From Gemmataceae bacterium (GTDB lineage Bacteria; Planctomycetota; Planctomycetia; Gemmatales; Gemmataceae): 64,000 nt of DNA. Shown one piece after another: positions 2,973-58,218 of the stretch. Each line of letters opens with the position of its first letter. Positions within the stretch are counted from its first letter, which is position 1. The stretch spans positions 134-64,133 of the forward strand of contig DATFNV010000336.1 in the NCBI GenBank assembly GCA_035266225.1, given 5' to 3'. A model generated the notes under the pieces. The model saw only the letters and a list, made by a program, of their open reading frames with translations. It searched no databases and was not told the origin of the DNA. The position numbers and the translations under genes were made by a program.

Positions 2973-2987
2973 GGATACGCTCCCTCC

Positions 2988-3049
2988 GTTTAGCGGCCGC
3001 TCGCAGAGCGGCGCGGACGAAAGCGCCGCTCTGCGAGCGGCCGCTAAAC
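2988..3049. repeat. palindromic element GTTTAGCGGCCGCTCGCAGAGCGGCGC-loop-GCGCCGCTCTGCGAGCGGCCGCTAAAC
   Basis: Perfect 27-bp arms read directly. The last 6 nt (CTAAAC = GTTTAG on the minus strand) encode the final Val and the TAG stop of cobQ. Confidence 0.9.
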
Positions 3050-4552
3050 GGACTCTTGAATCATCGTTTCCAATCGTGTCATGTCCAGCGCCGCCTCGAC
3101 CACGTCGGCCAACCGCTCTAAGGAGTCGTGGAGCGAGGCGCCGGGGGCGGTCGCCGCATGTCCCCCGGCCCCCTCGCATAGGCTGTCGAGCCACGCCCGA
3201 CGCAGCCCTGTGTTGTGGAACAGCCCGTGCAGGTAGCATCCCCACACCCGGCCGTCGTCGCTCACAGCCCCGTCGGGCAGGCCGGCCCGCTGCCCGTTGC
3301 GCGTGGCGACGTCGAGCCAGGGGCGCCCGCCGGCAGTCCGTCCCACGTGAATTTCATAGCCGTCCACCTCCTGGCCGGCCGCGGCGCTCAACCAACCCGG
3401 CCCCCCCAGCACTTGTGCCTTTACCCGGAAGGTCGCCTTGTTCTCCGCGAATGTCGTTTCGACCGGCAACAGTCCCAGGCCGGCCGACTCCACCACCCGC
3501 GATTCGACACCGCACGGGTCGCGGATCACTCGTCCGAGCAGTTGGTAGCCGCCGCAGATGCCGGCGACCGCGGCGCCCCGGGCGGCCCGCTCGCGGACCG
3601 CCTCGGCCAACCCCGTGGCGCGCAGCCAGCCCATGTCGGCGACGGTACTCTTGGTGCCGGGCAGGATGATCGCGTGCGGGTCGCCCAGCTCGCCCGGCAT
3701 CTGTACGTAGCGCAGGGTGACGCCCGGTTCGGCGATCAGCGGATCGAAATCATCGAAATTCGCGACGTGCGGTAGCCGGATGACCGCGATGTCGATGCCC
3801 CCTCTCGCCGGCGCGGGCACGAACGAATCCAGGGCCACGGCATCCTCCTCCGGGACGGCGAGTGCCGGCAGGTGCGGAATGACTCCCAGCACCGGCACGC
3901 CGCCGCGCTCCTCCAGGATGCGGACGCCGTCGGCGAAGAGCGCCGGGTCGCCGCGGAACTTGTTGACCACCAGGCCGCGGACCAGGGCACGTTCCTCCGG
4001 CTCCAGCAGCCAGAGTGTACCGAGAAGCTGGGCGAAGATGCCGCCGCGGTCGATGTCCCCCGCCAGCAGCACCGGGGCGCGGGCGTAGCGCGCCAGGCGC
4101 ATATTCACGATGTCGAGCGCCCGCAGGTTCAGCTCCGCCGGGCTGCCGGCCCCCTCGATCAGCACCAGCTCGTAAACGGCCCGCAGCCGGTCGAGCGCCG
4201 CCGTGACGACCGGCCACAATGCCTCCTTGCGCCGGTAGTAATCGGCCGCGCGCAGCGTCTGCCAGGGTCGGCCGAGGACGATGACCTGTGAGCGCGAATC
4301 CCCCTCCGGTTTGAGGAGGACGGGGTTCATGTCGGCGGCCGGCTCGATGCCGGACGCCGCCGCCTGGACCGCCTGGGCCCGGCCGATCTCGGCGCCGTCG
4401 GGGCAGACGGCCGCGTTGTTCGACATGTTCTGCGCCTTGAACGGTGCCACCCGCATCCCCCGGCGGGCGAAGACGCGACACAGCGCCGCCGTCAGCAGGC
4501 TCTTGCCGACCGACGAACTGGTCCCTTGGATCATTAGCACCCGCGCGGGCAT
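3044..4552 (-). CDS. cobQ: cobyric acid synthase
   Basis: 502 aa. N-terminal ATPase domain (MIQGTSSSVGKSLLTAALCR...FKAQNMSNN) and C-terminal glutamine amidotransferase (ICGGYQLLG, GYEIH). Confidence 0.92.
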   Translation of the reverse strand: MPARVLMIQGTSSSVGKSLLTAALCRVFARRGMRVAPFKAQNMSNNAAVCPDGAEIGRAQAVQAAASGIEPAADMNPVLLKPEGDSRSQVIVLGRPWQTLRAADYYRRKEALWPVVTAALDRLRAVYELVLIEGAGSPAELNLRALDIVNMRLARYARAPVLLAGDIDRGGIFAQLLGTLWLLEPEERALVRGLVVNKFRGDPALFADGVRILEERGGVPVLGVIPHLPALAVPEEDAVALDSFVPAPARGGIDIAVIRLPHVANFDDFDPLIAEPGVTLRYVQMPGELGDPHAIILPGTKSTVADMGWLRATGLAEAVRERAARGAAVAGICGGYQLLGRVIRDPCGVESRVVESAGLGLLPVETTFAENKATFRVKAQVLGGPGWLSAAAGQEVDGYEIHVGRTAGGRPWLDVATRNGQRAGLPDGAVSDDGRVWGCYLHGLFHNTGLRRAWLDSLCEGAGGHAATAPGASLHDSLERLADVVEAALDMTRLETMIQESV

Positions 4553-6442: not shown

Positions 6443-7821
6443 GCCCAACCTCCCTCGGTCCCCCCGCATGCCGCTACGAAGCGATCAGCCAGCCCCGGCC
6501 GCGCGGCGAAATGCAGGTGGACATACGATGCCCTCAGGCTGCCCAGCCGAGCGCCTTCCGGCCGCGCGTCCCCTTCCCCCGTGCGCGGCAGAAGGAACCA
6601 GGCCGGCGGCAGGTCGGTTGGCCGGTCCTCCCAGGCGGAGTAATGGAACTCGTGGCCGCGCACCGTCTCGCCCCCGGGAAGCAGCCACGAATCTCCCGCC
6701 ACCCGCGCCAGCCGGTAGCCGAGCGTCAGCCGGCCGCTCATGACCGAGCGCCCCGGCAGCAGGCCGACCATCTCATGTCGCCGCCCGTCGCAATCCACGA
6801 TCGCCTGAGTCAGGTACATCAGTCCGCCGCATTCGGCATAGATCGGCAGCCCGCGCCGATGGGCAGCGTGCAGGGCGGCGTGCAGGGGGCGGTTTGCCGC
6901 CAGGGCCTCGGCGTAGACCTCTGGGAAACCGCCGCTGAGGATGATCGCGCCCGTCCCCGCCGGCAGCATCGTGTCATTCAGCGGGCTGAAGAAGACGACA
7001 TCGGCACCGGCCGCGCGAAGCAGGTCCAGGTTGTCCTCGTAAGTGAACTGGAACGCCTCGTCGCGCGCCACCCCGATCACCGGACGGTTCCCGGCCGGCC
7101 GGCATTCGGCGTCAGGCGTCGTAGGCAAGGCTGGTGCCTGTTGGGCGATGGCCAGGAGCTGATCGATGTCCAGGTACTGGGCCACGACGTCACCGGCGGC
7201 GCGCACGAACTCCTCCCAGCGACCGGGCTCGCGGGTCGGGATCAGGCCAAGGTGCCGTTCGGGGATGCACAGCGCTTCGTCGCGCGTGACCCAGCCGAGG
7301 ACGGGGAGCCCGGTGGCCTTCGCAACGACCGAGGCGACTCCGCGGCCGTGTCCTTCCCCCGCGACGCGATTGATGATGAATCCGGCCAGCGGAACCCTCT
7401 CGTCGAAGCGCCGGCAGCCGAGAGCCACGGCGCCGGCGCTGCGTGCCATCTTCGAGGCATCCAGCACGACGATGACGGGCGCCCTGAGCAGCTTCGCCAC
7501 TTCGGCGGTGCTGCCGCACTCGTCGTCGTAATCGGCGCCGTCGTACAGCCCCATGACTCCCTCGATAATCGCAATATCGGCATCACGCGCGGCGCGGCTG
7601 AACAGCGAGCGGACGCGCTCCGGCGGCAGCATCCAGGTGTCGAGGTTGCGGCACGGCCGGCCGGCGGCCAGCGCATGGTAAGTCGGGTCGATGTAATCGG
7701 GGCCGACCTTGAACGGCTGGACGGTCAGTCCGCGCCGGCGCAGGGCGGCGATGATGCCCGTCGTCAGCGTGGTCTTGCCGACTCCGCTGTGCGTCCCCGC
7801 GATGACCAAGCGTCCTCCCAC
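6439..7821 (-). CDS. cbiA: cobyrinate a,c-diamide synthase
   Basis: ORF 6439..8031. There is no ATG upstream of the P-loop, so I chose GTG 7821, which is preceded by GGGGATGGGGGGA. Motifs VIAGTHSGVGKTTLTTG, PFKVGPDYIDP and the amidotransferase ECGGLMYL. Exact start is uncertain. Confidence 0.85.
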   Translation of the reverse strand: MGGRLVIAGTHSGVGKTTLTTGIIAALRRRGLTVQPFKVGPDYIDPTYHALAAGRPCRNLDTWMLPPERVRSLFSRAARDADIAIIEGVMGLYDGADYDDECGSTAEVAKLLRAPVIVVLDASKMARSAGAVALGCRRFDERVPLAGFIINRVAGEGHGRGVASVVAKATGLPVLGWVTRDEALCIPERHLGLIPTREPGRWEEFVRAAGDVVAQYLDIDQLLAIAQQAPALPTTPDAECRPAGNRPVIGVARDEAFQFTYEDNLDLLRAAGADVVFFSPLNDTMLPAGTGAIILSGGFPEVYAEALAANRPLHAALHAAHRRGLPIYAECGGLMYLTQAIVDCDGRRHEMVGLLPGRSVMSGRLTLGYRLARVAGDSWLLPGGETVRGHEFHYSAWEDRPTDLPPAWFLLPRTGEGDARPEGARLGSLRASYVHLHFAARPGLADRFVAACGGTEGGWA

Positions 7822-10362: not shown

Positions 10363-13300
10363 TCACGGGTTTCCCGACAGCGCCTGGACGGGCGCCCGGT
10401 CGCCCCGCGCCTCCAGCATCTCCTCACTCTTCAGCAGCGCCTCCCGCAGGTCCGCCAGCGTCTCCGCGCCCGGCGCCGCCCACATCCCCCGTTGCGCCGC
10501 CTCCAGCAACCGCTCGGCCACCGCGTGCAGCGCCCACGGATTACTGCGGGCGAAGAACTCCTGCATGGCCGGGTCCAGGGCGTAGGCCTGCGCCACCTGC
10601 TCGTACATCCAATCCTCCGCCACCCCTGCCGTGGCGTCGTAGCCGAACAGGTAATCGACGGTCGCCGCCAATTCCAGACCGCCCTTGTAGCCGTGCCTGG
10701 TGATACCCTCCAGCCACTTCGGGTTGACGACGCGCGTGCGGAAGACGCGCAGCGCCTCCTGCTTCAGGTCGCGCACCGCCGGCCGCGCCGGGTCGTGCGT
10801 GTCGCCGAAGTAGTGCCGCGGCTGCCGGCCGGTCAGGGCGCGGATGGCGGCAATCATGCCTCCGTGAAATTGGAAATAGTCGTCGCTGTCGAAGATGTCG
10901 TGCTCGCGGTTGTCCTGGTTGTGCAGCGCCACCTGCACCTCGCCCAGCCGCCGGCGGAAGGCGTCGCGCGCGTCCACCCCCTGGGCGTCGGCCGCGTAGG
11001 CGTAGCCGCCCCAGTTGACGTAGGTCTCGGCGAAGTCGGCGTCGTCGCGCCAGTTGCGCTCATCGATCAGCGGCAGCAGCCCCGCCCCGTACGAACCGGG
11101 CTTCGAGCCGAAGATGCGGTAACGCGCCTGCCGCTCCGGCTCCGGCAGCCCGGCCGCGACGTTGGCCGCCAGGTCGGCGAGGTAGTGCTTGCGCACGAAG
11201 TTCCGCTCCGGCGGCTCGTCGAGCAGGACGACCGCCTGCACGGCATCGTCGAGTAATTTGATGAGGTGCGGGAAAGCGTCGCGGAAAAAGCCGCTGATGC
11301 GCACCGTCACGTCGATCCGCGGCCGACCGAGTGCGTCCGGCGGCACCACCTCGACGCCGACGACCCGGCGGTTCTCCTTCTGCCACACCGGCCGCACCCC
11401 GAGCAGCGCCAACACCTCGGCCACGTCGTCGCCGTGGGTGCGCATGGCGCTGGTGCCCCAGGCACTGATGCCGACCGTCTCCGGGTAGGCGCCGGTCTCG
11501 GCGCGGTAGCGCTCCAGTACCTCGCGGGCCAACTCCTGTCCCACCTGCCACGCCGCGGCCGACGGCAGGGCGCGCGGATCGACGGCGTAGAAGTTGCGGC
11601 CGGTCGGCAGGACGTGGGCCATACCGCGCGTCGGCGCCCCGCTCGGCCCGGCGGGGACGTAACGTCCCTCCAGAGCGGCAAGGAGATTCTCGATCTCGTC
11701 CGTCGTCTGCCGCAGCGCCGGCACCAGGCGCTCGCAGACGAAGGACAGCACGGCGCGCACGTCGGCCCCGTCCCCGAGTCCGGGGACCGTGTGTGCGATG
11801 ACTGCCTCCACGGCGTCCGCCCGGAAGTCGTGCCGCTGCAGGAGCGCCAGCAGGTGCCGGCACAGGTCGTCGATGGTTTCCAGCGCGTCGGCGTGCGTCA
11901 CCAGCGGGCGGTCGGCCAACCGGGCGAGCGCCGGCGGCACCACCGCGAGAGGCCGGCCGCGCTCCGCGAGCAGCATGTCGAGGTCGAGCCCAAACAGTCC
12001 GGCCACGGCGGCGCGCAGGCTCGGCACGTCGAGATTGGGGATGCGCGTCAGCGCTTGAAGGAGCCCGACCATCTGCTCGCCCTCGGGCACCTGACCCAGG
12101 ACGTGCAGGCCGTCGCGGATCTGCGCCCCCGCCAGCTCGCACAAATAGCCGTCCAGTTCCTGGACGAGGTGCGACACCTCGCGGCCGCGCATCTGCGCCA
12201 GCGTCACCGGGGTGCCGTCGGCGGTGACGGCGTCGTCCCACTCGTGCGTGTGGCCGTCCTCGCCCTTCTGCATCAGATATTTCAGGTCGTCTTCGAGGTG
12301 GGCGTGCCGGATCAGGTCCCAGATTTGCTGCTGGACCAGCGGCATCTTCGACGGGTCGAGCAACTCCACCTGGTAATACTCGTCCACGAGTTGCATCAAC
12401 TCGGCCAATTCGCCGTGGGCGTCGGCCGTCGTCATCGGCGGCGTCAGGTGGTCGATGATGACGGCGTGGCCGCGGCGCTTGGCCTGCGCCCCCTCGCCCG
12501 GGTCGTTGAGGATGAAAGGGTAGAACAAGGGCAGGTCGCCCAGGAAGGTGTCGGGGTAGCAGTCCGCCGACAACCCGACCCCCTTGCCCGGGAGCCATTC
12601 GAGCGTGCCGTGCTTGCCGAGGTGGACGATCGCATCGGCTCGCCAGACGTCGCGCAGCCAGCGGTAGAGGGCGTAGTAGTTGTGCGGCGGCGGCAGGTCG
12701 GGCTGGTGGTAGATGGCGTTCGGGTCCATGCCGTGGCCGCGCGGCGGCTGCAGGGCCACGAACACGTTGCCGAAGTCGAGGCCGGCCAGGGCGACGTGGT
12801 CGTCGTGGACGTATGCCTCCCCCGGCGGCGCTCCCCATTGTCCCGTCATCTGGCGCCGTTGCCCCTCCGGGAGGTCGTCGAACCAGCGCCGGTACTCGGC
12901 GGTCGAGACACGGCCGGCGGCGTTGGCCAGCTGCCCGGCCGTCAGGAGGGTTTCGTCGTAGGAACAGCGGTCGATGAGCGCGTGGATCAGGGCGTCGCCG
13001 TCGGGGGGCAATTCGCCGACGTGGTAACCGGCGTCGCGCAGTGCCGCCAGGACGTACAGCAGCGAGGCCGGGGCGTCGAGGCCGACGGCGTTGCCGACCT
13101 TCGCCGCCTTGCCCGGCGAGTTGGTGAGGACGAAGGCCACGCGCTTGTCGCGGTTCGGCTTGCGCCGCAGGGCCGCGAAGCGCAGGGCCAACCCCGCCAG
13201 GCGGCTGACGCGGTCGAGCACCGGACGGTAGATTGCAGATTGCAGATTGCAGATTGCAGATTGAGCTTCTGCAATCTGCAATCTGCAATCTGCAATCTGC

Positions 13301-14751
13301 AATCCTGACGTTGGCTCCTTGAAGGAGATGGGCACGGTGATAATTCGACCGTCGAATTCCGGCAGGGCGACGTTCATGGCGGTGTCGAGCGGGTTAAGCC
13401 CGCGCTGCGACGCCTCCCATTGCCAACGGGCGGTGCCGCCGCAGATCGCTTGCAGGACCGGCACGCCAAGGGCGGCGAAGGCGCTCACCGACCAGCCGGC
13501 CGGCGTCGGGCCGTCCGCCCGCACCTCACACACGGCGAAGGAGACGGTCGTGATCAGCACGTCGATCAACGGCCGGCCCTCCGCGACGAACGGCGCCAGG
13601 GCCGCGGGCCAGCGCGCCGCAGCCAGGCCCGGGGGCGGCGCGGTCTCCTCCTTCAGCGAGGCGGTAAAGACGGGGAGGACGTCGGCCCCGCGCGCCTCCA
13701 GCTCGCGGACGCAGGCGTCGATGAAAGCGAGGTTGCCGCTCATCCAGTGCGAGCGATAGAAGAGCAGGCCGATCGCGGGCCGGGCCGGGTCGCGCCGGGC
13801 GAGCCAGTCGGCCAGCGCGGCGCCGCGCGGCAGGTCGGGGTGGTAGACGCCGTGCTGCGGCTGCTCGGCCGGCGGGGCGTAACCGAAGCCGGTCAGCAGC
13901 AGGTGATCGGCCAGGAAGCGCAGCAGATGGGCGAGGTTGTCCGGCCCGCCCGCCTGGAGGTAGGCGGTCGCCTCGTGGACGACGGCCGGCGACACGGTGG
14001 AAGCGGCGGTCAATTCGGGGTCGGGGCTGCCGGTGCCGCTGACGACGAGCAGGTGCTGGCCGCGGGTGCGGGCCGCCTCGGACAGGGCGCGGAAGCCCGG
14101 CACGCTCTGTACCCCGCCCAGCAGGCGCGTCACGACCACGCGCGGCGTCGCCCCGGGCCAGGCCAGGGCGGCGGCCAGGTGCTCCTCGGTCGCCACCTGG
14201 CCCAGGCTCAGCGCCCGCACCGGCGGGAAGCCGGCCGGCAACTCGGCCACGGCCGGCCGTAGGGCCAGCAGGTCGGTGTCGGCGTGCGTCAAGAAGAGGA
14301 TGCCGTCGGCACCGCCCGGCAGGGTCGAGCGCACGGGGGAGTCGGCGTGAGTCCAGGCGTAGTAGGTGAAGACGTACTCGGCCAGTTCCGGCGGCGGCGG
14401 CAGGTAGCCGTCGGCTGCGAGCATCTGGTCGATGTAATCGAAGACGGCCCGGACCTGCGCCTCACCGTTGATCGACTGGAACCAGACCGGCCGGCCGTCG
14501 AAGAAGAGCAGCGCAACGTTCGACAGCGGACACGGCCCCAGACAGCCGCTCATGGTCAGCTGGACGAGTTTGCGAATCTTGCGCTTCTTGTACTCCTCCT
14601 TGTAGAAGTCCACCGGGACGGCGGCGTGGCCGCGGTCGGTTCGGCCGCAGCAGCACCCCTTGGCGCAGACCATCAGGTGGGCACGCTTGGCCACCAGGTG
14701 GATCGGCTTGCCGTCGAGGCGCAGGATGCGGTTGCGTCGCTTGCGGGGCAT
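10363..14751 (-). CDS. cobN: cobaltochelatase large subunit CobN with an extra N-terminal Cys-rich ferredoxin-like domain
   Basis: 1462 aa. The CobN body starts at about [14 protein letters not shown] and runs to the C-terminal ...YEQVAQAY...NPWAL. Residues 1-145 carry CAKGCCCG ... [11 protein letters not shown]. It also contains the in-frame heptamer palindrome at 13230-13305. Confidence 0.9.
13230..13305. repeat. heptamer palindrome (AGATTGC)x4 AGATTGA GCTTCT (GCAATCT)x4 GCAATCC inside the cobN CDS
   Basis: Read directly. Translated in the cobN frame as [26 protein letters not shown]. Same unit as the intergenic array at 34729-34830. Confidence 0.95.
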
Positions 14752-14763
14752 GGAGTCCGTGTA

Positions 14764-14825
14764 GCCGCTTGCGGCTTAGCGTTCGCGCCATCCTTCGATG
14801 GCGCGAACGCTAAGCCGCAAGCGGC
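14764..14825. repeat. palindromic element GCCGCTTGCGGCTTAGCGTTCGCGCC-loop-GGCGCGAACGCTAAGCCGCAAGCGGC
   Basis: 26-bp arms. Same family as 42808-42867 and 58159-58218. Lies between the second mini-ORF and the cobN start. Confidence 0.9.
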
Positions 14826-15087: not shown

Positions 15088-15264
15088 GCGATCGGTCCTC
15101 CCTGGCCGCCGCACGACGGCGGCGAGCCGGCAAACTATGCACCTCGGCGGAACTGGCTGGGGGAGGAAGAAAGGCGGTGGCGAAGTGAGGCCGTCATCGG
15201 CCACGTGAGCCGGTCCGGAGTCCGCACACCGTTGCTCCCGTCCCCTTGCCGCGAGGTTACGTCA

Positions 15265-15400
<136 letters not shown>

Positions 15401-15461
15401 CACTTACCGTAGACGAGTCTATCGAGCGGCCGGACGAAGGCAACGGCGCGGCGCGCGGAAA

Positions 15462-20216: not shown

Positions 20217-20308
20217 CCGTAACAACACTGTCTTCGCCGCTTGCGGCTTCGCAGGAAAGAGTGCGAAGCCGCAAGCGGCGAAGACAGTGTTGTTACGGAT
20301 TCTAAACG
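20217..20308. repeat. palindromic element with perfect 37-bp arms around GCCGCTTGCGGCTTCGCA, plus a CTAAAC end
   Basis: CCGTAACAACACTGTCTTCGCCGCTTGCGGCTTCGCA-GGAAAGAG-reverse complement, followed by ATTCTAAACG. Lies between the convergent CHAT and cytochrome genes. Related to 22840-22935. Confidence 0.9.
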
Positions 20309-22839: not shown

Positions 22840-23004
22840 GTTTAGAAACTGTAACAACAATGACTTCGCCGCTTGCGGCTTCGCAATCTTTGCTGCGAAG
22901 CCGCAAGCGGCAAGAGGGTTGTTGAGACGGTTCTTAGCGGCCGCCCACGATTGATCGTTTCGCGAAACGATCAATCCGCGCCGCCCCGAGGGCGGCGGCT
23001 AAAC
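22840..23004. repeat. composite of two abutting palindromic elements (GCCGCTTGCGGCTTCGCA type plus GTTTAGCGGCCGCC...GGCGGCGGCTAAAC type)
   Basis: Starts with GTTTAG and ends with CTAAAC. The inner 18-nt perfect palindrome ATCGTTTCGCGAAACGAT is at 22957-22974. Fills the whole GNAT-FIST intergenic space. Confidence 0.9.
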
Positions 23005-24211: not shown

Positions 24212-24284
24212 TCTGTTGCGCAAGCCGCTTGCGGCTTAGCGGATTCCAGGCTTCCGCTAAGCCGCAAGCGGCTTGTGCAACAGA
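24212..24284. repeat. palindromic element TCTGTTGCGCAAGCCGCTTGCGGCTTAGCGGA-loop-reverse complement
   Basis: 32-bp arms with 1 mismatch. The loop region GGATTCCAGGCTTCC also occurs at 20308-20322. Lies between convergent genes. Confidence 0.9.
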
Positions 24285-33642: not shown

Positions 33643-34226
33643 GAGACTTCTTCGTCACGACACTCGACTGGGCGGCCAGCCTGGCGCGGAAGAACAGCCT
33701 GTGGCCGATGCCGTTCGGGACGGCGTGCTGCGCCATCGAGCTGATGGCGGCGGGGGCCTCGCGCCACGACATCGCCCGCTTCGGCGCCGAGGCCATGCGC
33801 TTCAGCCCGCGGCAGTGCGACCTGATGATCGTCGCCGGCCGCGTGGTCATGAAGATGGTGCCGGTGATGCAGCGCATCTGGCTGCAGATGCCGGAGCCCA
33901 AGTGGTGCATCTCGATGGGCGCCTGCGCCTCCAGCGGCGGCGTCTTCGACACCTACTGCACCGTGCAGGGCATCGACCGCTTCATCCCGGTGGACATTTA
34001 CATCCCCGGCTGCCCGCCACGGCCCGAACAGATCCTGCAAGCGATCATCGACTTGCAGGAGCGCATCCAGAAAGGCGGCACGCTGACCGGCAAGGAGTTC
34101 GCTGCCCGCACCCGGCCGAAGAATCCGGCCCCGCTGGCGCTGGAGGTGCTGCCGGCGGACAAAATGGTGGCGCCCGGCGACTTCGCCACGGCGACGCGCC
34201 TGCGCGAGGGGGAGAAGTCACCGTGA
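33633..34226 (+). CDS. nuoB: NADH-quinone oxidoreductase subunit B
   Basis: ATG 33633, overlapping the nuoA end. Motifs [22 protein letters not shown] and IPGCPPRPE (N2 cluster cysteines). Confidence 0.93.
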
Positions 34227-34728: not shown

Positions 34729-34830
34729 CAATTGCAGATTGCAGATTGCAGATTGGAAGACAAATCTGCAATCTGCAATCTGCAATCTGCAATCTGCAAT
34801 CTGCAATCTGCAATCTGCAATCTGCAATCT
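34729..34830. repeat. asymmetric heptamer palindrome: about 3.5 x AGATTGC, spacer, about 9-10 x GCAATCT
   Basis: Read directly. Starts 3 nt after the nuoC TAA and ends immediately before the GGAGGG Shine-Dalgarno sequence of nuoD. Confidence 0.95.
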
Positions 34831-34839
34831 GGAGGGATC

Positions 34840-36060
34840 ATGCCACTGGAAACGCTCGATCCCCTGGCCGACGAGGTGGCCGAGAAAGACTACCAGTGGA
34901 CCCTCAACTTCGGCCCACAGCACCCGGCCACGCACACGACGCTGCGCCTGCTCCTGACGATTGACGGCGAGACCGTCATCAAGGCGGTGCCGGACATCGG
35001 CTACCTGCACAGCGGCTTCGAGAAGCTCGGCGAGCACCTCGACTACAACCAGTACGTCACCATCGTGGACCGGATGAACTACATCTCGCCGGTCATGAAC
35101 GAGATCGCCTGGTTCCACGTCGTCGAGAAGCTGATGGGCGTCGAGATCACGCCGCGCTGCAAGTACCTGCGCGTCATCCTGGGCGAATTGTCGCGTATCT
35201 CCGACCACCTGCTCTGCACCGGGGCGGCGGCGCTCGACCTGGGGGCCCTCACCGCCTTCCTGTACGCCTTCTACCAGCGCGAGAAGCTCTACGACATCTT
35301 CGAGTTCGCCTCGGGGCAGCGCTTCCACCCCAGCTATTTCCGCGTCGGCGGGCTGACCCGCGACGTGGACGACGCCTGGATCGACCGGGTGCGCGACTTC
35401 ATCAAGGGCTTCCCGCGGGCGCACGCCGACGTAACGAAGCTGCTCAACCGCAACCGCATCTTCATCGACCGCACCCACGGCATCGGCGTCCTGACCCGCG
35501 AGGAGGCGATCAACCGCGGCGCCACCGGCCCCGTCGCCCGCGCCAGCGGTGTGGTCCGCGACCTGCGCAAGGACGAGCCGTACCTCGCCTACAAGGATTT
35601 CGACTTCAAGGTCGTCTGCTCGACCGCCGGCGACAGCTACGCCCGCTACCTGGTACGCATGGAAGAGATGCTCGAGTCGCTGAAGATCGTCGCGCAGGCG
35701 GTCGAGAATTTGCCGGGCGGCCCGGTCAACGTGGACGTGGAAGGCAAGGCGGTGCTGCCCGACCAGCTGGCGGTGTACCGCAGCATCGAGTCGCTGATCC
35801 AGCACTTCGAGTTGGTCATGACCAACCGGCAATGGCAGCCGCCGGTCGAGGAACTCTACGGGGCGGTCGAGTCGCCGAACGGGGAGCTGGGCTTCTACGT
35901 CGTCAGCGACGGCAGCGGGCAGGCGTACCGGGCGCGGACGCGGCCGCCGTCGTACATCCATTTCGCCCTGTTCCCGCAGCTGATCGTCGGACACCAGGTA
36001 AGCGACGTGGTGGCGGTGCTGGGGAGCCTGAACATCATCGCGGCGGAGCTGGACCGGTAG
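34840..36060 (+). CDS. nuoD: NADH-quinone oxidoreductase subunit D
   Basis: ATG 34840, with GGAGGG at -9. Motifs LNFGPQHPATHTTLRL, IGYLHSGFEKL and RPPSYIHF. Confidence 0.93.
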   Translation: MPLETLDPLADEVAEKDYQWTLNFGPQHPATHTTLRLLLTIDGETVIKAVPDIGYLHSGFEKLGEHLDYNQYVTIVDRMNYISPVMNEIAWFHVVEKLMGVEITPRCKYLRVILGELSRISDHLLCTGAAALDLGALTAFLYAFYQREKLYDIFEFASGQRFHPSYFRVGGLTRDVDDAWIDRVRDFIKGFPRAHADVTKLLNRNRIFIDRTHGIGVLTREEAINRGATGPVARASGVVRDLRKDEPYLAYKDFDFKVVCSTAGDSYARYLVRMEEMLESLKIVAQAVENLPGGPVNVDVEGKAVLPDQLAVYRSIESLIQHFELVMTNRQWQPPVEELYGAVESPNGELGFYVVSDGSGQAYRARTRPPSYIHFALFPQLIVGHQVSDVVAVLGSLNIIAAELDR

Positions 36061-36118
36061 GTCAGGCTTTCCAGCCTGACCGGGCTTGGGGTCAGGCTGG
36101 AAAGCCTGACCTACGATG
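36059..36118. mobile_element. 60-nt twin-hairpin insertion flanked by a 14-nt direct repeat (MITE/REP-like, non-autonomous)
   Basis: Hairpins GGTCAGGCTTTCCAGCCTGACC (36060-36081) and GGTCAGGCTGGAAAGCCTGACC (36090-36111). The direct repeat GGAGCTGGACCGGT occurs at 36045-36058 and 36119-36132. Confidence 0.7.
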
Positions 36119-36610
36119 GGAGCTGGACCGGTGAGCGTACTGAGCGAAGACCTGCGGCAGAAGATCCTGGCGTACCTCCCGCGCTACCCGAGCAAGCAGG
36201 CGGTGACGCTGCCGGCGCTGCACGTCGTGCAGGACGCCCTGCGCTGCGTGCCGCTGGAGGCGGTCCGGGAGATCGCCGACCTGCTCGACCTGAGCCCGGC
36301 CGAGGTCGCCGACACGATGACCTTCTACGGCTTCTTCCGCCCCGAGGACAAGCCGCTCGGCAAGACTCGCCTGTGGGTGTGCCGGGGATTGGCCTGCGCC
36401 CTCCGCGGCGGCGAGGAGCTGCTGTCGGACCTGTGTCAGCGGCTGAACGTCCGGCCCGGCCAGACGAGCGCGGACGGCAAGGTCACCGTCGAGTTCGCCG
36501 AGTGCATCGGCGTGTGCGAGGGAGCGCCGGCGGTGCTGATCGACGACGCCGGGCGCGGGGACGTGACGCCGGATCGGGTGGACGCCCTGCTGGCAGAACT
36601 GCGACAATGA
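36116..36610 (+). CDS. nuoE: NADH-quinone oxidoreductase subunit E
   Basis: 164 aa. 2Fe-2S cysteines in VCRGLAC and ECIGVCEGAP. The ancestral start was probably the in-frame GTG 36131. Confidence 0.9.
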   Translation: MGAGPVSVLSEDLRQKILAYLPRYPSKQAVTLPALHVVQDALRCVPLEAVREIADLLDLSPAEVADTMTFYGFFRPEDKPLGKTRLWVCRGLACALRGGEELLSDLCQRLNVRPGQTSADGKVTVEFAECIGVCEGAPAVLIDDAGRGDVTPDRVDALLAELRQ

Positions 36611-36638: not shown

Positions 36639-36992
36639 ATGCAACTGGAAGATTACTTCGAGTTCGAGAAGTTCACGACCCCGTTTGGGCCGGTCGAGCG
36701 CATCCGGATCAAGGGACACCGGATCGCTATCGAGAACGTCATCGACTACTTCAATCAAGGGATGCAGCCGAGGGAGATTTGCGAGAAATTGCCGACCCTT
36801 ACGCTGGAGGAGGTTTACGCGACGGTCACGTACTACCTCCACAACAAGGAAAAGGTAGACGCCTACAACGAGGAGGGCGAGAAGATCGCGGACGCGTGGT
36901 ATCAGGAGTACCTCAAATACGGGCCGTACTTCTTGCGGGACCGGGCGAGCGAGTACGTTGTTGGACCGGAAGTCCCACCCGACCATGACTAA
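36639..36992 (+). CDS. DUF433-domain protein (putative antitoxin)
   Basis: 117 aa. IRIKGHRIAIENVIDYFNQGMQPREICEKLPTLTLEEVYATVTYY fits the DUF433 helix-turn-helix pattern. About 55% GC versus about 70% in the flanks. Confidence 0.7.
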   Translation: MQLEDYFEFEKFTTPFGPVERIRIKGHRIAIENVIDYFNQGMQPREICEKLPTLTLEEVYATVTYYLHNKEKVDAYNEEGEKIADAWYQEYLKYGPYFLRDRASEYVVGPEVPPDHD

Positions 36993-37344
36993 ACCGCGGT
37001 TTCTATGCGATGAGAACATCGACCCGGACCTCGTCGATGCCATCCGGCAGATGGGGCCCGCCATCGACGTCATTCGGGTCGGCGATCCCGGCGCTCCGCC
37101 CTTGGGTACAAAGGATCCCGATCTCCTTATCGCTGCCGAGGCGTCGGGGCGTGTCTTTGTTTCCCACGACCGGCGCTCGATGTCAGGCCACTTGGCAAAC
37201 CACTACGCTGCCGGACGACACACGGCAGGGATCATTCTGTTGCGGCGAAGGTTTTCGATCGGGCAGTACGCCCGAGAAATCGTCAATCAGTGGGCAACCA
37301 CGACTGCTGACGAGTGGGTTGATCGCACGATGTACTTGCCCTAA
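36985..37344 (+). CDS. DUF5615 / Mut7-C-like PIN-fold protein (putative toxin)
   Basis: ATG 36985, overlapping the DUF433 stop by 8 nt. MTKPRFLCDENIDPDLVDAIRQMG...DPDLLIAAEASGRVFVSHDRR...AGIILLRR. Confidence 0.7.
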   Translation: MTKPRFLCDENIDPDLVDAIRQMGPAIDVIRVGDPGAPPLGTKDPDLLIAAEASGRVFVSHDRRSMSGHLANHYAAGRHTAGIILLRRRFSIGQYAREIVNQWATTTADEWVDRTMYLP

Positions 37345-37373
37345 CGATTGGAACGTGCCTTGATGCTGGGTGA

Positions 37374-39247: not shown

Positions 39248-40888
39248 ATGGCAGTCGTTTACGTCAACGGCACGCCGGTCGATATCGGTGCCGAGAGGCT
39301 GAACCTGATTCAGGCCGCCGAGAAGGCCGGGGTGTTCATTCCCCGCTACTGCTGGCACCCGGCGCTGACCGTGGTGGCGTCGTGCCGCATGTGCCTGGTC
39401 GAGGCCGGCGAGATGAAGGACGGCAAGCCGACCCTGCAGCCGCGCGTCGTTCCCGCCTGCCAGACGCCGGCCAAGGACGGCAGCGTCATCGTCACCAACA
39501 GCGACAAGGCCAAGGCCGCCCAGGCCGGTACCCTGGAAGACCTGCTCCTCAACCATCCCCTCGACTGCCCCGTCTGCGACAAGGCCGGCGAGTGCATGCT
39601 CCAGGACTTCAGCTACCGCTTTGGCCGGTCCGAGAGTCGTATGATCGACCCGAAGCACACGCCGCCCAACAAGCCGCACATCGGGCCGAATGTCACGCTG
39701 TTCACCGACCGCTGCATCATGTGTACCCGTTGCGTCCGCTTCGCGCGCGAGGTCAGCGGTGAGGCCGAACTGCTGGTCGCGAACCGCGGCGACCACGAAG
39801 AAATCGACACCTTCCCCGGCATCCCGCTCGACAACAAGCTGGCCAGTAACGTCGTGGACCTGTGCCCCGTCGGCGCCCTGTGCAGCAAGGACTTCCTCTA
39901 CAAACAGCGCGTCTGGTTCCTCAAGGAGCAGAAGAGCGTCTGCCCCGATTGCAGCACCGGCTGCAGCGTCTGCCTCGACACCAACAAGAGCGTCGTCTAC
40001 CGCCTGCGGCCGCGCTACAACCCGCAGGCCCAGGGGCACTTCATGTGCGACGACGGCCGACTCGGCTACCACTACATCAACTCCGACCAGCGGCTGACGC
40101 AACCCTACTCCCGGCGCGACGGCCGGTTGCAACCGGCCGAGTGGCCGGAGGTGCTGGCGGGGGTGCGGCGCGAGTTCGCCGAGGCTGTGCGGCGGGACGG
40201 CTCCGCGGTCGCCGGCGTCCTGTCGCCGTTCCTGACGTGCGAGGAGGCGTTCCTGCTCGCCAAGTTCCTCAAGGGTCTGTCGGGGGAGGTGCGCCTGGCG
40301 CTGGGTCCGGTGCCGGTCGTCGGCGAGGACGATACCTATCCCAAGGACCGCCGCGGCCGGCCGGCCCAGCCGGTGAAATTCATCATTCGGGCGGAGAAAT
40401 GTCCGAACCGCCGCGGCGTCGAGGAGGTGCTACGTCACTTCCAGGGGGACGTGGTCAAGTTCGACGACGTCCTGCGCGACGCGGCGGCCGGCAAGGTGCA
40501 GGCGCTCTACCTCGCGGCCGGCTACCCGCCGCGCGGAGGCTGGATCACCGAGGCGCAGGCGAAGTCGCTGGAGAAGGTGCCGCTCCTGGTGGTGCAGGAC
40601 CTGTTCTTCACGCCGGCCACCGGCCCGGCGAAGTACGTCATCCCCGCGGTCAGCTTCGCGGAGAAGGACGGCACCTTCGTCAACCACGCTGGGCTGGCGC
40701 AGGCGATCCACTGGGGCGCAACGCCGCCTGGCGAGTGCCGCACTGACGGGCAAGTGTTCCTCGACCTGCTGGAGCGCCGCGGGCTGGCGCACGCGCCGAC
40801 CTTTAGGAAGGAATTGGCCGGCGAAGTGCCGTACTTCGCGCCGCTGGCGCCGGGGGAGATCGGCGAATACGGGGTAATGCTCGTTTAG
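39248..40888 (+). CDS. nuoG: NADH-quinone oxidoreductase subunit G (short form)
   Basis: 546 aa. 2Fe-2S region CWHPALTVVASCRMCLVE, then HPLDCPVCDKAGEC, CIMCTRCVRF and LCPVGAL. Confidence 0.92.
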   Translation: MAVVYVNGTPVDIGAERLNLIQAAEKAGVFIPRYCWHPALTVVASCRMCLVEAGEMKDGKPTLQPRVVPACQTPAKDGSVIVTNSDKAKAAQAGTLEDLLLNHPLDCPVCDKAGECMLQDFSYRFGRSESRMIDPKHTPPNKPHIGPNVTLFTDRCIMCTRCVRFAREVSGEAELLVANRGDHEEIDTFPGIPLDNKLASNVVDLCPVGALCSKDFLYKQRVWFLKEQKSVCPDCSTGCSVCLDTNKSVVYRLRPRYNPQAQGHFMCDDGRLGYHYINSDQRLTQPYSRRDGRLQPAEWPEVLAGVRREFAEAVRRDGSAVAGVLSPFLTCEEAFLLAKFLKGLSGEVRLALGPVPVVGEDDTYPKDRRGRPAQPVKFIIRAEKCPNRRGVEEVLRHFQGDVVKFDDVLRDAAAGKVQALYLAAGYPPRGGWITEAQAKSLEKVPLLVVQDLFFTPATGPAKYVIPAVSFAEKDGTFVNHAGLAQAIHWGATPPGECRTDGQVFLDLLERRGLAHAPTFRKELAGEVPYFAPLAPGEIGEYGVMLV

Positions 40889-40932
40889 CGGCGGGTCGCA
40901 GACCCGCGCGGGTCTGCGACCCGCCGCTAAAC
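40883..40932. repeat. palindromic element GTTTAGCGGCGGGTCGCAGACCCGCG / CGCGGGTCTGCGACCCGCCGCTAAAC
   Basis: A near-perfect 50-nt palindrome. The first 6 nt encode the last Val and the TAG stop of nuoG. Confidence 0.9.
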
Positions 40933-40946
40933 AAGGACGGATATCC

Positions 40947-42807: not shown

Positions 42808-42867
42808 GCCGCTTGCGGCTTAGCGTTCGCTTCACCCCGATGAAGCGAACGCTAAGCCGCAAGCGGC
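42808..42867. repeat. palindromic element GCCGCTTGCGGCTTAGCGTTCGCTTCA-loop-reverse complement
   Basis: Same family as 14764-14825 and 58159-58218. Ends 1 nt before the nuoJ ATG. Confidence 0.9.
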
Positions 42868-46366: not shown

Positions 46367-46371
46367 GGGCG

Positions 46372-46465
46372 CTCTGTGATTTATCGTTTCGCGCTCGCTT
46401 GATCCTGCCGGGGAGAAGGGACTCTCCGGCAGGATCAAGCGAGCGCGAAACGATAAATCACAGAG
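46372..46465. repeat. 94-nt palindromic element with perfect 40-bp arms
   Basis: CTCTGTGATTTATCGTTTCGCGCTCGCTTGATCCTGCCGG-14 nt loop-reverse complement. Shares the GATTTATCGTTTCGCG module with 51784-51856 and 56427-56499. Confidence 0.95.
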
Positions 46466-46477
46466 CCGAGGTTTGTC

Positions 46478-48178
46478 ATGCAAGACTACTCGCCGCTGAT
46501 CTGGCTAGCGCTGGTCGTGCCCGCCGTCGCCGCCGTCGTCGCCGCCGCCCTCGGCCCGCGCCGCGGCGACCTGGTGCGCTGGGTGGCGCTGGTCGCGACG
46601 CTCATCACGCTGGTCCTCGTCGCCGTCATCACGGTCGAGTTCGCCGCCCACCCGCGAGACCCGGACCCGGCCGCCGCGAAGGAGGGGAGGTACTTCGAGC
46701 CGATGATGACCACCCAGCGCGTCATCCTGCCCCTGCAAGTGACCGGCCCCGAGCCCGAGCGGAAGCCGGTCGCCATCGAGTTCTACGTCGGCATCGACGG
46801 CCTCAACGTCTGGCTGGTGGCGCTGACGGCGGTGCTCATGGTGCCGTCGGTCCTCGTCTCGTGGAAGGCCGTCAGCGAGCGCGTCAACGAGTATTACGCC
46901 TGGCTGCTGCTCTTGCAGGTGGGCATGACGGGCGTCTTCGTCGCCTTCGACATCGTCCTCTTCTACGTCTTCTTCGAGCTGACGCTGGTGCCGCTGTTCT
47001 TCCTCATCGGCATCTGGGGCGGGCCGCAGCGGCAGCACGCGGCGCGCAAGTTCTTCATCTACACCCTGGCCGGCTCGCTCATCACCCTGCTGGGAGTCTT
47101 CGGCGCCGTCCTCGCCTGCCACACGGCGGCCCACGAACTGACCTTCTCCATCCCGCGGCTGGTGGCGATCGTGCAGGAACAACTCGCGACCAGCACGGGC
47201 GAGCACCTGGCGTTCTGGCGGTCGGTGCAGCTGTACGTGTTCCTGGGCCTGATGGCCGGTTTTGCCGTCAAGGTGCCGCTGGTGCCGCTGCACACCTGGC
47301 TGCCGCTGGCCCACGTCGAGGCGCCCACCGCCGGCTCGGTCCTGCTCGCCGGCGTCCTGCTGAAGCTCGGCACCTACGGCTTCCTGCGCCTGGCCCTGCC
47401 GCTGGCCCCCGACACCGCCCTCAGTCTCGGCGTGCCCCTCATCGGCACCCTGGCCGTCGTCGGCGTCATCTACGGCGCCCTCTGCGCCCTCGCCCAGAAC
47501 GACGTCAAGAAGCTGGTGGCCTACAGCTCGGTCAGCCACCTCGGCCTGTGCATGCTCGGCATGTTCGCGCTGAACGAGACTGGCCTGGGCGGCAGCCTCA
47601 TTCAGATGATCAACCACGGCCTCTCTACGGGCGGCCTCTTCCTCCTGGTCGGCATGCTCTACGAGCGCTACCACACGCGCCTGATGGCCGACTACGGCGG
47701 AATGGCCGCGAAGCTGAAATTACTCGGCGTGTCGATGGTCTTCATCTGCCTGTCGAGTGCCGGCCTGCCGGGGTTGAACGGCTTCTGGGGTGAGGTGCTG
47801 TCGCTCATGGGCATTGGCTCGCTACGGGGGTCGCGCGTGTCCGGCGCCTTGCTGTGCGGGCTGGGCGCGACCGGCGTGGTGCTGGGGGCCTGGTACCTGC
47901 TGACGATGCTGCGGCGCGTCTTCTTCGGCCCGCTCAAGGAGCCGAGCCACGAGGGGCACGAGCCGGTACGCGACCTCAACGTGCGCGAGTTGGCGGCGCT
48001 GGTCCCCATCGGCGTCCTGTGCGTCGCCCTGGGCGTCTACCCGCAGCCGTTCTTCAGCGCCGCCGACCGCGACCTGAAGGTGATGGCGGGCATCGCCGAC
48101 GCGGCCCGCGCCCGGGCGGAATTGCGCCTCGAGGATCGGGCCGCCGCGCCGGCGCCGGCCGGGGAGGGAGTGCGGTGA
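46478..48178 (+). CDS. nuoM: NADH-quinone oxidoreductase subunit M
   Basis: 566 aa. Motifs FFELTLVPLFFLIGIWGG, AVKVPLVPLHTWLPLAHVEAPTAGSVLLAGVLLKLG and SVSHLG. Confidence 0.95.
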   Translation: MQDYSPLIWLALVVPAVAAVVAAALGPRRGDLVRWVALVATLITLVLVAVITVEFAAHPRDPDPAAAKEGRYFEPMMTTQRVILPLQVTGPEPERKPVAIEFYVGIDGLNVWLVALTAVLMVPSVLVSWKAVSERVNEYYAWLLLLQVGMTGVFVAFDIVLFYVFFELTLVPLFFLIGIWGGPQRQHAARKFFIYTLAGSLITLLGVFGAVLACHTAAHELTFSIPRLVAIVQEQLATSTGEHLAFWRSVQLYVFLGLMAGFAVKVPLVPLHTWLPLAHVEAPTAGSVLLAGVLLKLGTYGFLRLALPLAPDTALSLGVPLIGTLAVVGVIYGALCALAQNDVKKLVAYSSVSHLGLCMLGMFALNETGLGGSLIQMINHGLSTGGLFLLVGMLYERYHTRLMADYGGMAAKLKLLGVSMVFICLSSAGLPGLNGFWGEVLSLMGIGSLRGSRVSGALLCGLGATGVVLGAWYLLTMLRRVFFGPLKEPSHEGHEPVRDLNVRELAALVPIGVLCVALGVYPQPFFSAADRDLKVMAGIADAARARAELRLEDRAAAPAPAGEGVR

Positions 48179-56407: not shown

Positions 56408-56426
56408 CCGATGAACTCACTTGAGC

Positions 56427-56499
56427 GGCGGCCCACGATTCATCGTTTCGCGACACGATGAGATTTATCGTTTCGCGACACGATAAATCGTGGGCGGCC
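56427..56499. repeat. palindromic element with a duplicated ATCGTTTCGCGACACGAT module
   Basis: GGCGGCCCACGATTCATCGTTTCGCGACACGATGAGATTTATCGTTTCGCGACACGATAAATCGTGGGCGGCC. Lies between convergent genes. Confidence 0.85.
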
Positions 56500-56514
56500 T
56501 CCCAACCGAGACGA

Positions 56515-58158: not shown

Positions 58159-58218
58159 GCCGCTTGCGGCTTAGCGTTCGCTCCGTGAGAGTTGCGCGAA
58201 CGCTAAGCCGCAAGCGGC
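58159..58218. repeat. palindromic element GCCGCTTGCGGCTTAGCGTTCGC-loop-GCGAACGCTAAGCCGCAAGCGGC
   Basis: Same family as 14764 and 42808. It is the only copy located in a divergent promoter region (radical SAM gene / mutM). Confidence 0.9.

Follow-up and report, generated by a model that had tools for sequence, protein, structure and literature searches.

The DNA analysed here is a stretch of 64,000 nucleotides from a Gemmataceae bacterium (assembly GCA_035266225.1, contig DATFNV010000336.1; hereafter the window), and its subject is a small palindromic element that lies between the genes nuoD and nuoE of the nuo operon. We find that this element consists of two units, arranged head-out, of a GTAG-tagged repetitive extragenic palindrome (REP), a doublet forming hairpins (REPIN), and that its family is widespread in Planctomycetota. 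The element has truly been inserted where the two genes formerly shared a 4-nt GTGA overlap. The element is accompanied by an exact 14-nt direct repeat. Comparison of the flanks of related copies shows that this duplication is genuine but idiosyncratic, and we infer that it is not to be taken as the footprint of a mobilising enzyme. The history that we regard as probable is that the REPIN inserted into the GTGA overlap and that the duplication arose as an event-specific by-product kept by selection, with the TAG of the REP and the duplicated start region preserving both genes.

A palindromic doublet flanked by a 14-nt repeat separates nuoD from nuoE

The element is a pair of mirror-image hairpins, 58 bases in all (Table 1). 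The initial annotation of this DNA had described two 22-nt hairpins that are reverse complements of each other, and both are present, GGTCAGGCTTTCCAGCCTGACC (36060–36081, loop TTCC) and GGTCAGGCTGGAAAGCCTGACC (36090–36111, loop GGAA), but the inverted repeat itself is longer: it has 25-nt arms, GTAGGTCAGGCTTTCCAGCCTGACC and its complement, which are 100% complementary, lie 8 nt apart and have GTAG as their outer end on the left and CTAC on the right. The sequence GGAGCTGGACCGGT occurs exactly, as had been reported, at both of the positions that flank the insert; there is no other exact copy of it in the window, and the match extends on neither side. A chance origin of this arrangement was rejected, as 100 shuffles of the window gave a mean of 0.06 matches for a 14-nt direct repeat with at most one mismatch, and the hairpin pattern had 2 matches in the window against 0.03 expected. 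An assembly artefact was also rejected, as the insert and its repeats are identical in 15 contigs from separate JGI and Logan samples, which are 99.5–100% identical to the window.

The annotation had further predicted that deletion of the insert and one copy of the repeat would restore a GTGA overlap between the two genes, and had proposed that close relatives be searched for an empty site. Such a site was found in contig L211, whose NuoE is 91% identical to that of the window. Here, the DNA reads ...GGAGTTGGACCGGTGAGCGTA... (also given as GCGGCGGAGTTGGACCGGTGAGCGTACT, and in a longer stretch as ...ATCGCGGCGGAGTTGGACCGGTGAGCGTACTAACC...), with a GTGA overlap and a single, synonymous difference from the predicted restored sequence. 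A BLAST comparison aligned one and the same run of 14 bases in L211 to both copies of the repeat in the window, which is how a duplicated target classically shows itself. Five more of the close relatives (P0005, P0007, P0008, P0017 and P0023) have a 4-nt nuoD/nuoE overlap and a V (GTG) start, which implies GTGA, as assessed by gene coordinates and protein start; an equivalent ATGA overlap is found in 20 more distant relatives (57–84% NuoE identity, against 89–92% for the closest). The same GTGA coupling is present within the operon of the window, as the annotation had noted, at nuoB/nuoC (34223–34226) and nuoM/nuoN (48175–48178), with GGAG-type Shine–Dalgarno-like motifs upstream of the GTG at both junctions. 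The element is thus a true insertion into a former 4-nt GTGA overlap. By sequence identity, it took place later than the split from lineages with ~88% DNA identity and earlier than the spread of the present population, whose members are at least 99.5% identical.

The junctions can be read to the base. At the left, a GT is common to the target and to the GTAG head of the REP, so that the duplication measures 12–14 nt with 2 nt of microhomology. At the right, the four bases GATG stand between the element and the repeat. The right flanks of other REP copies have no GATG-like consensus, and these bases may be filler or flank brought from the donor copy. The idea that the CGATG to the right of the element is a remnant of an ancestral ATGA overlap was rejected, as the closest relatives have GTGA.

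Table 1. Features of the nuoD/nuoE junction, in coordinates of the window.
Feature	Position	Strand	Remarks
nuoD (406 aa)	34840..36060	+	NCBIfam NuoD TIGR01962, E=4.5e-141; called as a gene at 210-1430 in contig L117, which is identical
Left 14-nt repeat, GGAGCTGGACCGGT	36045..36058	+	Original last nuoD codons; final GT common to the REP GTAG head; aligns with L211 813-826
REP unit 1	36057..36081	+	GTAG head; 9-bp stem GGTCAGGCT/AGCCTGACC; loop TTCC
Spacer GGGCTTGG, 8 nt	36082..36089	.	Loop of the long hairpin; spacers of other doublets are 0-167 nt
REP unit 2	36090..36114	-	Exact reverse complement of unit 1; CTAC end on the + strand
GATG, 4 bases	36115..36118	+	Outside the REP consensus and the L211 empty site; creates in-frame ATG 36116-36118
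Right 14-nt repeat	36119..36132	+	Shine-Dalgarno-like GGAG 36119-36122 and first two bases of the native GTG (36131-36133); aligns with L211 813-826
nuoE	36131..36610	+	159 aa from GTG 36131 or 164 aa from ATG 36116; NCBIfam NuoE family matches

The element belongs to a planctomycete REP family

Representative genomes were scanned for the hairpin, which was found at no fewer than 115 loci (at least L001–L115), nearly all of them in Planctomycetota, with labels that include Isosphaeraceae ‘SH-PL62’, Gemmataceae, Pirellulales and Planctomycetales. Among the matches listed, there were several copies per metagenome-assembled genome (MAG) in Isosphaeraceae and Gemmataceae, and the loop was TTCC or GGAA in 90 of the 126 hairpins found. 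The REP is directional, since the loop is TTCC where GTA precedes the stem and GGAA where TAC follows it; its consensus is 5′-GTAGGTCAGGCTTTCCAGCCTGACC. The fetched DNA contained 268 REP copies at up to four mismatches, and neighbouring copies formed head-out inverted pairs in 91 cases, against 14 for all other arrangements. The GTAG head was present in most family copies (207/256). At stem pair 10–19 there were 194 copies with GC and 55 with CG, leaving 7 of the 256 without a standard pair, and at stem pair 8–21 there were 240 with AT and 6 with GC; such changes are compensatory and conserve the hairpin. GTAG REPs have been described in Planctomycetes, and among GTAG REPs head-out (‘HH’) dimers predominate (Di Nocera et al, 2013; PMC3733652).

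The locus had been presented as the transposition footprint of a tiny non-autonomous element. That reading stands insofar as the insertion is real and the element non-autonomous, but the element is not of a new kind: it is a GTAG REP doublet, otherwise ordinary, in a genome and a lineage full of intergenic palindromes.

By its sequence context, the family is associated with a REP-associated tyrosine transposase (RAYT), an IS200-like Y1/HUH enzyme whose gene is seen in another planctomycete. Here, at locus L018, an open reading frame (ORF) of 221 aa (6632–7294) matches Pfam Y1_Tnp (PF01797, E=8e-9, above the cutoff) and shows HVHVLL and YIENNP motifs, and it has three REPs in tandem directly upstream of it and a group of REPs downstream. 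More than 1000 homologues of this protein exist, and JGI gives many of them the name ‘REP element-mobilizing transposase RayT’. In L095, a weak tblastn match to the protein (27% identity, E=5e-5) has REPs on either side. A search for a RAYT or an IS200/IS605-type enzyme, which the initial annotation had recommended, thus led to a Y1 gene flanked by the same REPs. The 64-kb window contains no RAYT or other transposase, in agreement with the annotation, and no parent insertion sequence with matching terminal inverted repeats was found, the transposase-type genes that adjoin the repeats all being Y1-like (L018 and L095).

The taxonomic spread of the REP was also recorded. The 25-nt REP is near-identical across MAGs with the labels Isosphaeraceae, Gemmataceae, Pirellulales and Planctomycetales, a range broader than the usual species or genus specificity of REPs. 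The full GTAG consensus is also present in a few scan matches from MAGs that bear the labels Alcaligenaceae, Kuenenia or Geobacter, and these are possibly mislabelled bins.

The 14-nt repeat is not a trait of the family

The annotation had interpreted the 14-nt repeat as the target-site duplication of a transposase, and had proposed that the flanks of other dimers be tabulated, noting that copies without flanking duplications would speak against this interpretation. Such copies are what we found in other genomes. When the 40-nt flanks of each of 74 independent doublets were compared, the longest direct repeat was mostly 4–6 nt, the same as for randomly re-paired flanks; there were few flank repeats of 8–10 nt, and the inspected cases sit inside larger or nested repeats. 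An abutting-repeat test that allowed mismatches gave the null result for 75 doublets and 34 singletons, with the window copy as the sole outlier. Because the other doublets and the singletons match the null, a 14-nt repeat is nothing that characterises the family. Within the window, 13 other long palindromic elements have no flank repeats above 8 nt and none that abut, and at the 11 palindromic inserts found at the nuoD/nuoE junction of relatives the flank repeats are no more than short chance matches.

IS200/IS605 enzymes, to which RAYTs are related, make no target duplication (Nunvar et al, 2010; PMC2817692), and the window copy departs from duplication-free insertion of this kind, since its 14-nt repeat is exact and the empty site has that sequence only once. 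REPINs have been reported to duplicate very rarely, and their mode of integration has been described as unresolved (Bertels & Rainey, 2011; PMC3116915).

Both genes are preserved across the insertion

The ORFs of nuoD and nuoE are both intact despite the insert. NuoD ends in ...AELDR, followed by a TAG stop at 36058–36060 that is composed of the T of the target and the AG of the element; that the insert supplies this stop had been recognised in the annotation. In GTAG REPs, the TAG of the tag is often the stop codon of a flanking ORF (PMC3733652). For nuoE, a new start at ATG 36116 had been proposed. This ATG is indeed in frame (ORF 36116–36610), but GTG 36131, which is also in frame 15 nt 3′ of it, is the likelier start. 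The GTG has its own GGAG 8 nt upstream (GGAG-N8-GTG), and the ATG lies 2 nt from the 25-bp stem without a Shine–Dalgarno motif. Most of the listed NuoE homologues, which place the organism as a Gemmataceae MAG, are 159 aa long, and the closest ones begin with V, i.e. GTG; gene callers differ on the start, giving 164 aa in P0002 and 159 aa in P0003.

These features suggest how the junction may have arisen. In a recent ancestor of this Gemmataceae species, a REPIN entered the nuoD/nuoE GTGA overlap, and in the same event 12–14 nt of target (GGAGCTGGACCG[GT]) would have been duplicated and GATG added. The duplication may have come from break repair or template switching during insertion, with two possible routes: staggered nicks may have been filled in, or the template may have been switched, so that a donor REPIN was copied along with some bases of its flank before copying resumed 14 nt upstream. 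Selection would have passed the event as the sole way in which such an insertion could be viable: the REP TAG would re-create the nuoD stop right after ...AELDR, and the duplicated segment, which starts exactly at GGAG and ends in GTG, would supply an independent initiation region for nuoE downstream of the stable hairpin. A plain insertion in GTGA would destroy either the nuoD stop or the nuoE start, and the observed configuration keeps both. Likewise, a bare 14-nt tandem duplication would frameshift nuoD and lose its stop, so that insertion and duplication were probably one event or close together. Because the nuoD stop now lies 70 nt upstream, across the hairpin, nuoE would initiate de novo, and stop/start coupling would have been replaced by this mode of initiation.

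The RNA fold predicted for 36030–36150 has a free energy of −69.9 kcal/mol (z=−6.8) and is dominated by the hairpin; as DNA, the 25-bp stem scores −34.9. No terminator-like site was found in 35800–36400, the stem of the element being followed by ACGATGGGAG and not by the T-run that, after a G+C-rich stem, marks an intrinsic terminator. Neither an Rfam family nor a promoter pattern was found at the locus. On the mRNA, the 25-bp stem is most likely a neutral or stabilising structure and not a terminator, and its function would at most be transcript stabilisation or processing. REPs in E. coli operons are known to have such roles.

Alternative origins of the duplication

A repeat that is exact, abuts the element and is single-copy in the empty site is also what a true target-site duplication would leave. 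The 25-nt arms would then be terminal inverted repeats like those of MITEs (miniature transposable elements with inverted repeats), and a DDE transposase, or an unusual mode of RAYT, would have made 14-bp staggered cuts that were filled in; a contig with the same 70-nt gap, that of P0009, would possibly be a second occurrence. We consider this unlikely, given that the 74–75 other doublets and the 34 singletons show no flank repeats, that GATG separates the element from the right repeat, that the enzyme associated with the family is of the Y1/HUH type, whose relatives make no duplications (PMC2817692), and that no DDE transposase with these ends was seen. The two features might instead have separate origins, with slippage first producing a tandem duplication of the end of nuoD and a REP doublet later landing between the copies without a duplication of its own. 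This would agree with the REP family normally leaving none, and also with contig L116 (85% DNA identity), where 15 extra in-frame bases at the junction (3790–3830; GGATCGATGAGCGGAGCGTCGATGGCC), partly repeating TCGATG and without a hairpin, may have been duplicated by slippage or be the scar of an excision, so that small duplications can arise at this site. The proposed intermediate, however, would frameshift nuoD into nuoE with no stop and would probably be deleterious; moreover, both 14-nt copies are still identical, and the duplication without hairpins, which the initial annotation had named as a sign of local duplication, occurs in 0 of ~60 relatives. The assembly of L116 is error-prone and carries frameshifts, and its extra bases differ in sequence from those of the window; a duplication common to this 85%-identical lineage was for these reasons set aside as not usable. 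On balance, two separate steps seem improbable.

The hairpin might also have been selected by the host to set the expression of nuoA–D against that of nuoE–N through stabilisation or processing of the mRNA, with the duplication as an adaptive rebuilding of the junction. Long perfect palindromes do occur at other nuo junctions of the window (34731–34831, 40880–40935, 42808–42867 and 46371–46466), at least 11 relatives have unrelated palindromes at the nuoD/nuoE junction, and the predicted fold is very stable. Yet a plain 4-nt overlap serves the closest relatives well, the inserts differ by lineage, as for opportunistic landing in a tolerant site, and the locus has neither a terminator signature nor an Rfam family. 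We judge such a regulatory origin very unlikely.

Several points nevertheless weigh against an event-specific duplication acquired during REPIN insertion. Its origin in one step by repair or template switching would be inferred from one event alone. The copies used for comparison belong to other genomes, where old duplications might have decayed. The 64-kb window holds one REP copy (the doublet), and the multi-copy family and its RAYT are known from other genomes. No donor was identified: a copy with the spacer GGGCTTGG was absent from all fetched loci and viral contigs, and the donor flank CTACGATG, sought in the same scope, had two matches, at REP heads with other spacers. A copy in which GGGCTTGG is followed by CTACGATGG, if it exists, would be the donor and would favour template-switch copying with donor flank. 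Finally, in the P0009 contig (JGI 3300047160; 91% NuoE identity), the nuoD–nuoE gap is by its coordinates exactly 70 nt, with a GTG start, which is the geometry of the window; P0011 and P0017, the nearest NuoE relatives of P0009, have the empty 4-nt overlap. Should P0009 prove to have this element together with the duplication, the event would be ascribed to recombination or to a site-specific mechanism that is reproducible, and not to a one-off accident. We give a slim chance to the corresponding proposal that REPIN integration can itself make a 12–14-nt target duplication at a defined site, with the P0009 gap as a possible recurrence. Were this true, the junction would record recurrent, site-directed REPIN insertion and would provide a footprint for inferring how RAYTs and REPINs integrate.

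Under the history that we prefer, in which a REPIN inserted once and the duplication was a by-product of that event, the locus is a natural before-and-after pair for REPIN insertion into a gene overlap, a single event with an unusual junction. The occupied site, the matching empty site and junctions known to the base (a shared GT of 2 nt, four bases of filler and a 12–14-nt duplication) together make a data point on REPIN integration. The locus also shows that an important operon can tolerate an insertion in one of its stop/start overlaps, the TAG of the element closing nuoD and the duplicated ribosome binding site and start reopening nuoE.

Other palindromes and inserts around the locus

The nuoD/nuoE junction is a repeated landing place for palindromes, and the nuo operon as a whole has likewise gathered them repeatedly in this lineage. 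Unrelated palindromic inserts are found at the junction in L137, L140, L145, L146, L151, L157, L164, L169, L173, L203 and L210; those of L137 (GTAGGGAACGCC...) and L169 (GTAGGGTGCACGG...) are head-out dimers of GTAG REPs from other families. At the same junction, L140, L146, L164, L139, L156 and L176 have short-unit tandem arrays, e.g. of CCACTGA or AGCTAnC. These are analogous to inverted blocks of 7-nt tandem repeats in the window, (GATTGCA)n followed by (TGCAATC)n, at 13223–13305 and in the nuoC–nuoD spacer at 34731–34831. Such inverted short-unit arrays are a recurrent intergenic structure in this group.

The window contains further palindromic doublets with arms of 23–45 nt, most of them perfect, at 2254–2336, 2985–3052, 14764–14825, 20217–20298, 22847–22932, 24212–24284, 40880–40935, 42808–42867, 46371–46466, 56416–56510 and 58159–58218, several of which lie between nuo genes. 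They form several families, e.g. GCCGCTTGCGGCTTAGCG..., GTTTAGCGGC... and a GTAGTGACCCGATTTATCGGGTC doublet, and none has flanking direct repeats.

Two genes that resemble a toxin–antitoxin pair separate nuoE from nuoF in the window, at 36639–37363: one encodes DUF433 (Pfam PF04255, E=4.8e-12), and its neighbour is annotated as DUF5615. In L211, L210 and the contigs of P0005, P0008, P0017 and P0023, nuoE directly abuts nuoF, so that the DUF433/DUF5615 pair is a second lineage-specific insertion in the nuo operon. Elsewhere in the window, a cobalamin riboswitch (Rfam RF00174, 52 bits, E=4.5e-10) lies on the minus strand at 15260–15405.

Comparison with known systems

One close match is to the ‘HH’ dimers of GTAG REPs (PMC3733652), with which the element shares the 5′ GTAG, the 9-bp stem, the 4-nt loop, the GTAG termini on the outside, the use of TAG as the stop of the upstream ORF and the occurrence in Planctomycetes. 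It differs from them in the 14-nt flanking duplication of the window copy and in the presence of near-identical copies in MAGs of several planctomycete families; the exact 25-mer GTAGGTCAGGCTTTCCAGCCTGACC was found neither in the main text of PMC3733652 nor by a full-text literature search. The REPIN/RAYT system (PMC3116915, PMC2817692) is alike in its inverted REP doublet that forms one long hairpin, in being non-autonomous and in the Y1 gene flanked by the same REPs (L018), whereas the spacer of the window copy is only 8 nt. No description of a REPIN insertion footprint with target duplication was found in the REPIN/RAYT literature examined.

By analogy, IS200/IS605 elements such as IS608 and ISDra2 would share the HUH/Y1 chemistry, the recognition of sub-terminal hairpins and single-strand intermediates, but they insert without target duplication, unlike the insertion in the window with its accompanying duplication of 12–14 nt. 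The MITEs of bacteria, Correia/NEMIS among them, originate from DDE insertion sequences, and most of their copies have a fixed-length duplication, which in Correia is TA. The present element resembles them in being small, with terminal inverted repeats and a flanking direct repeat, in lying within an operon and in forming an RNA hairpin, yet it belongs to a REP family without a fixed-length duplication and with a Y1 rather than a DDE association. Finally, Rickettsia palindromic elements are likewise palindromes that land inside essential coding regions or on their margins, and they survive there because reading frames are kept. Those elements are translated in frame within proteins, whereas the element in the window lies between two ORFs and lends only its first bases, as the TAG that ends nuoD.

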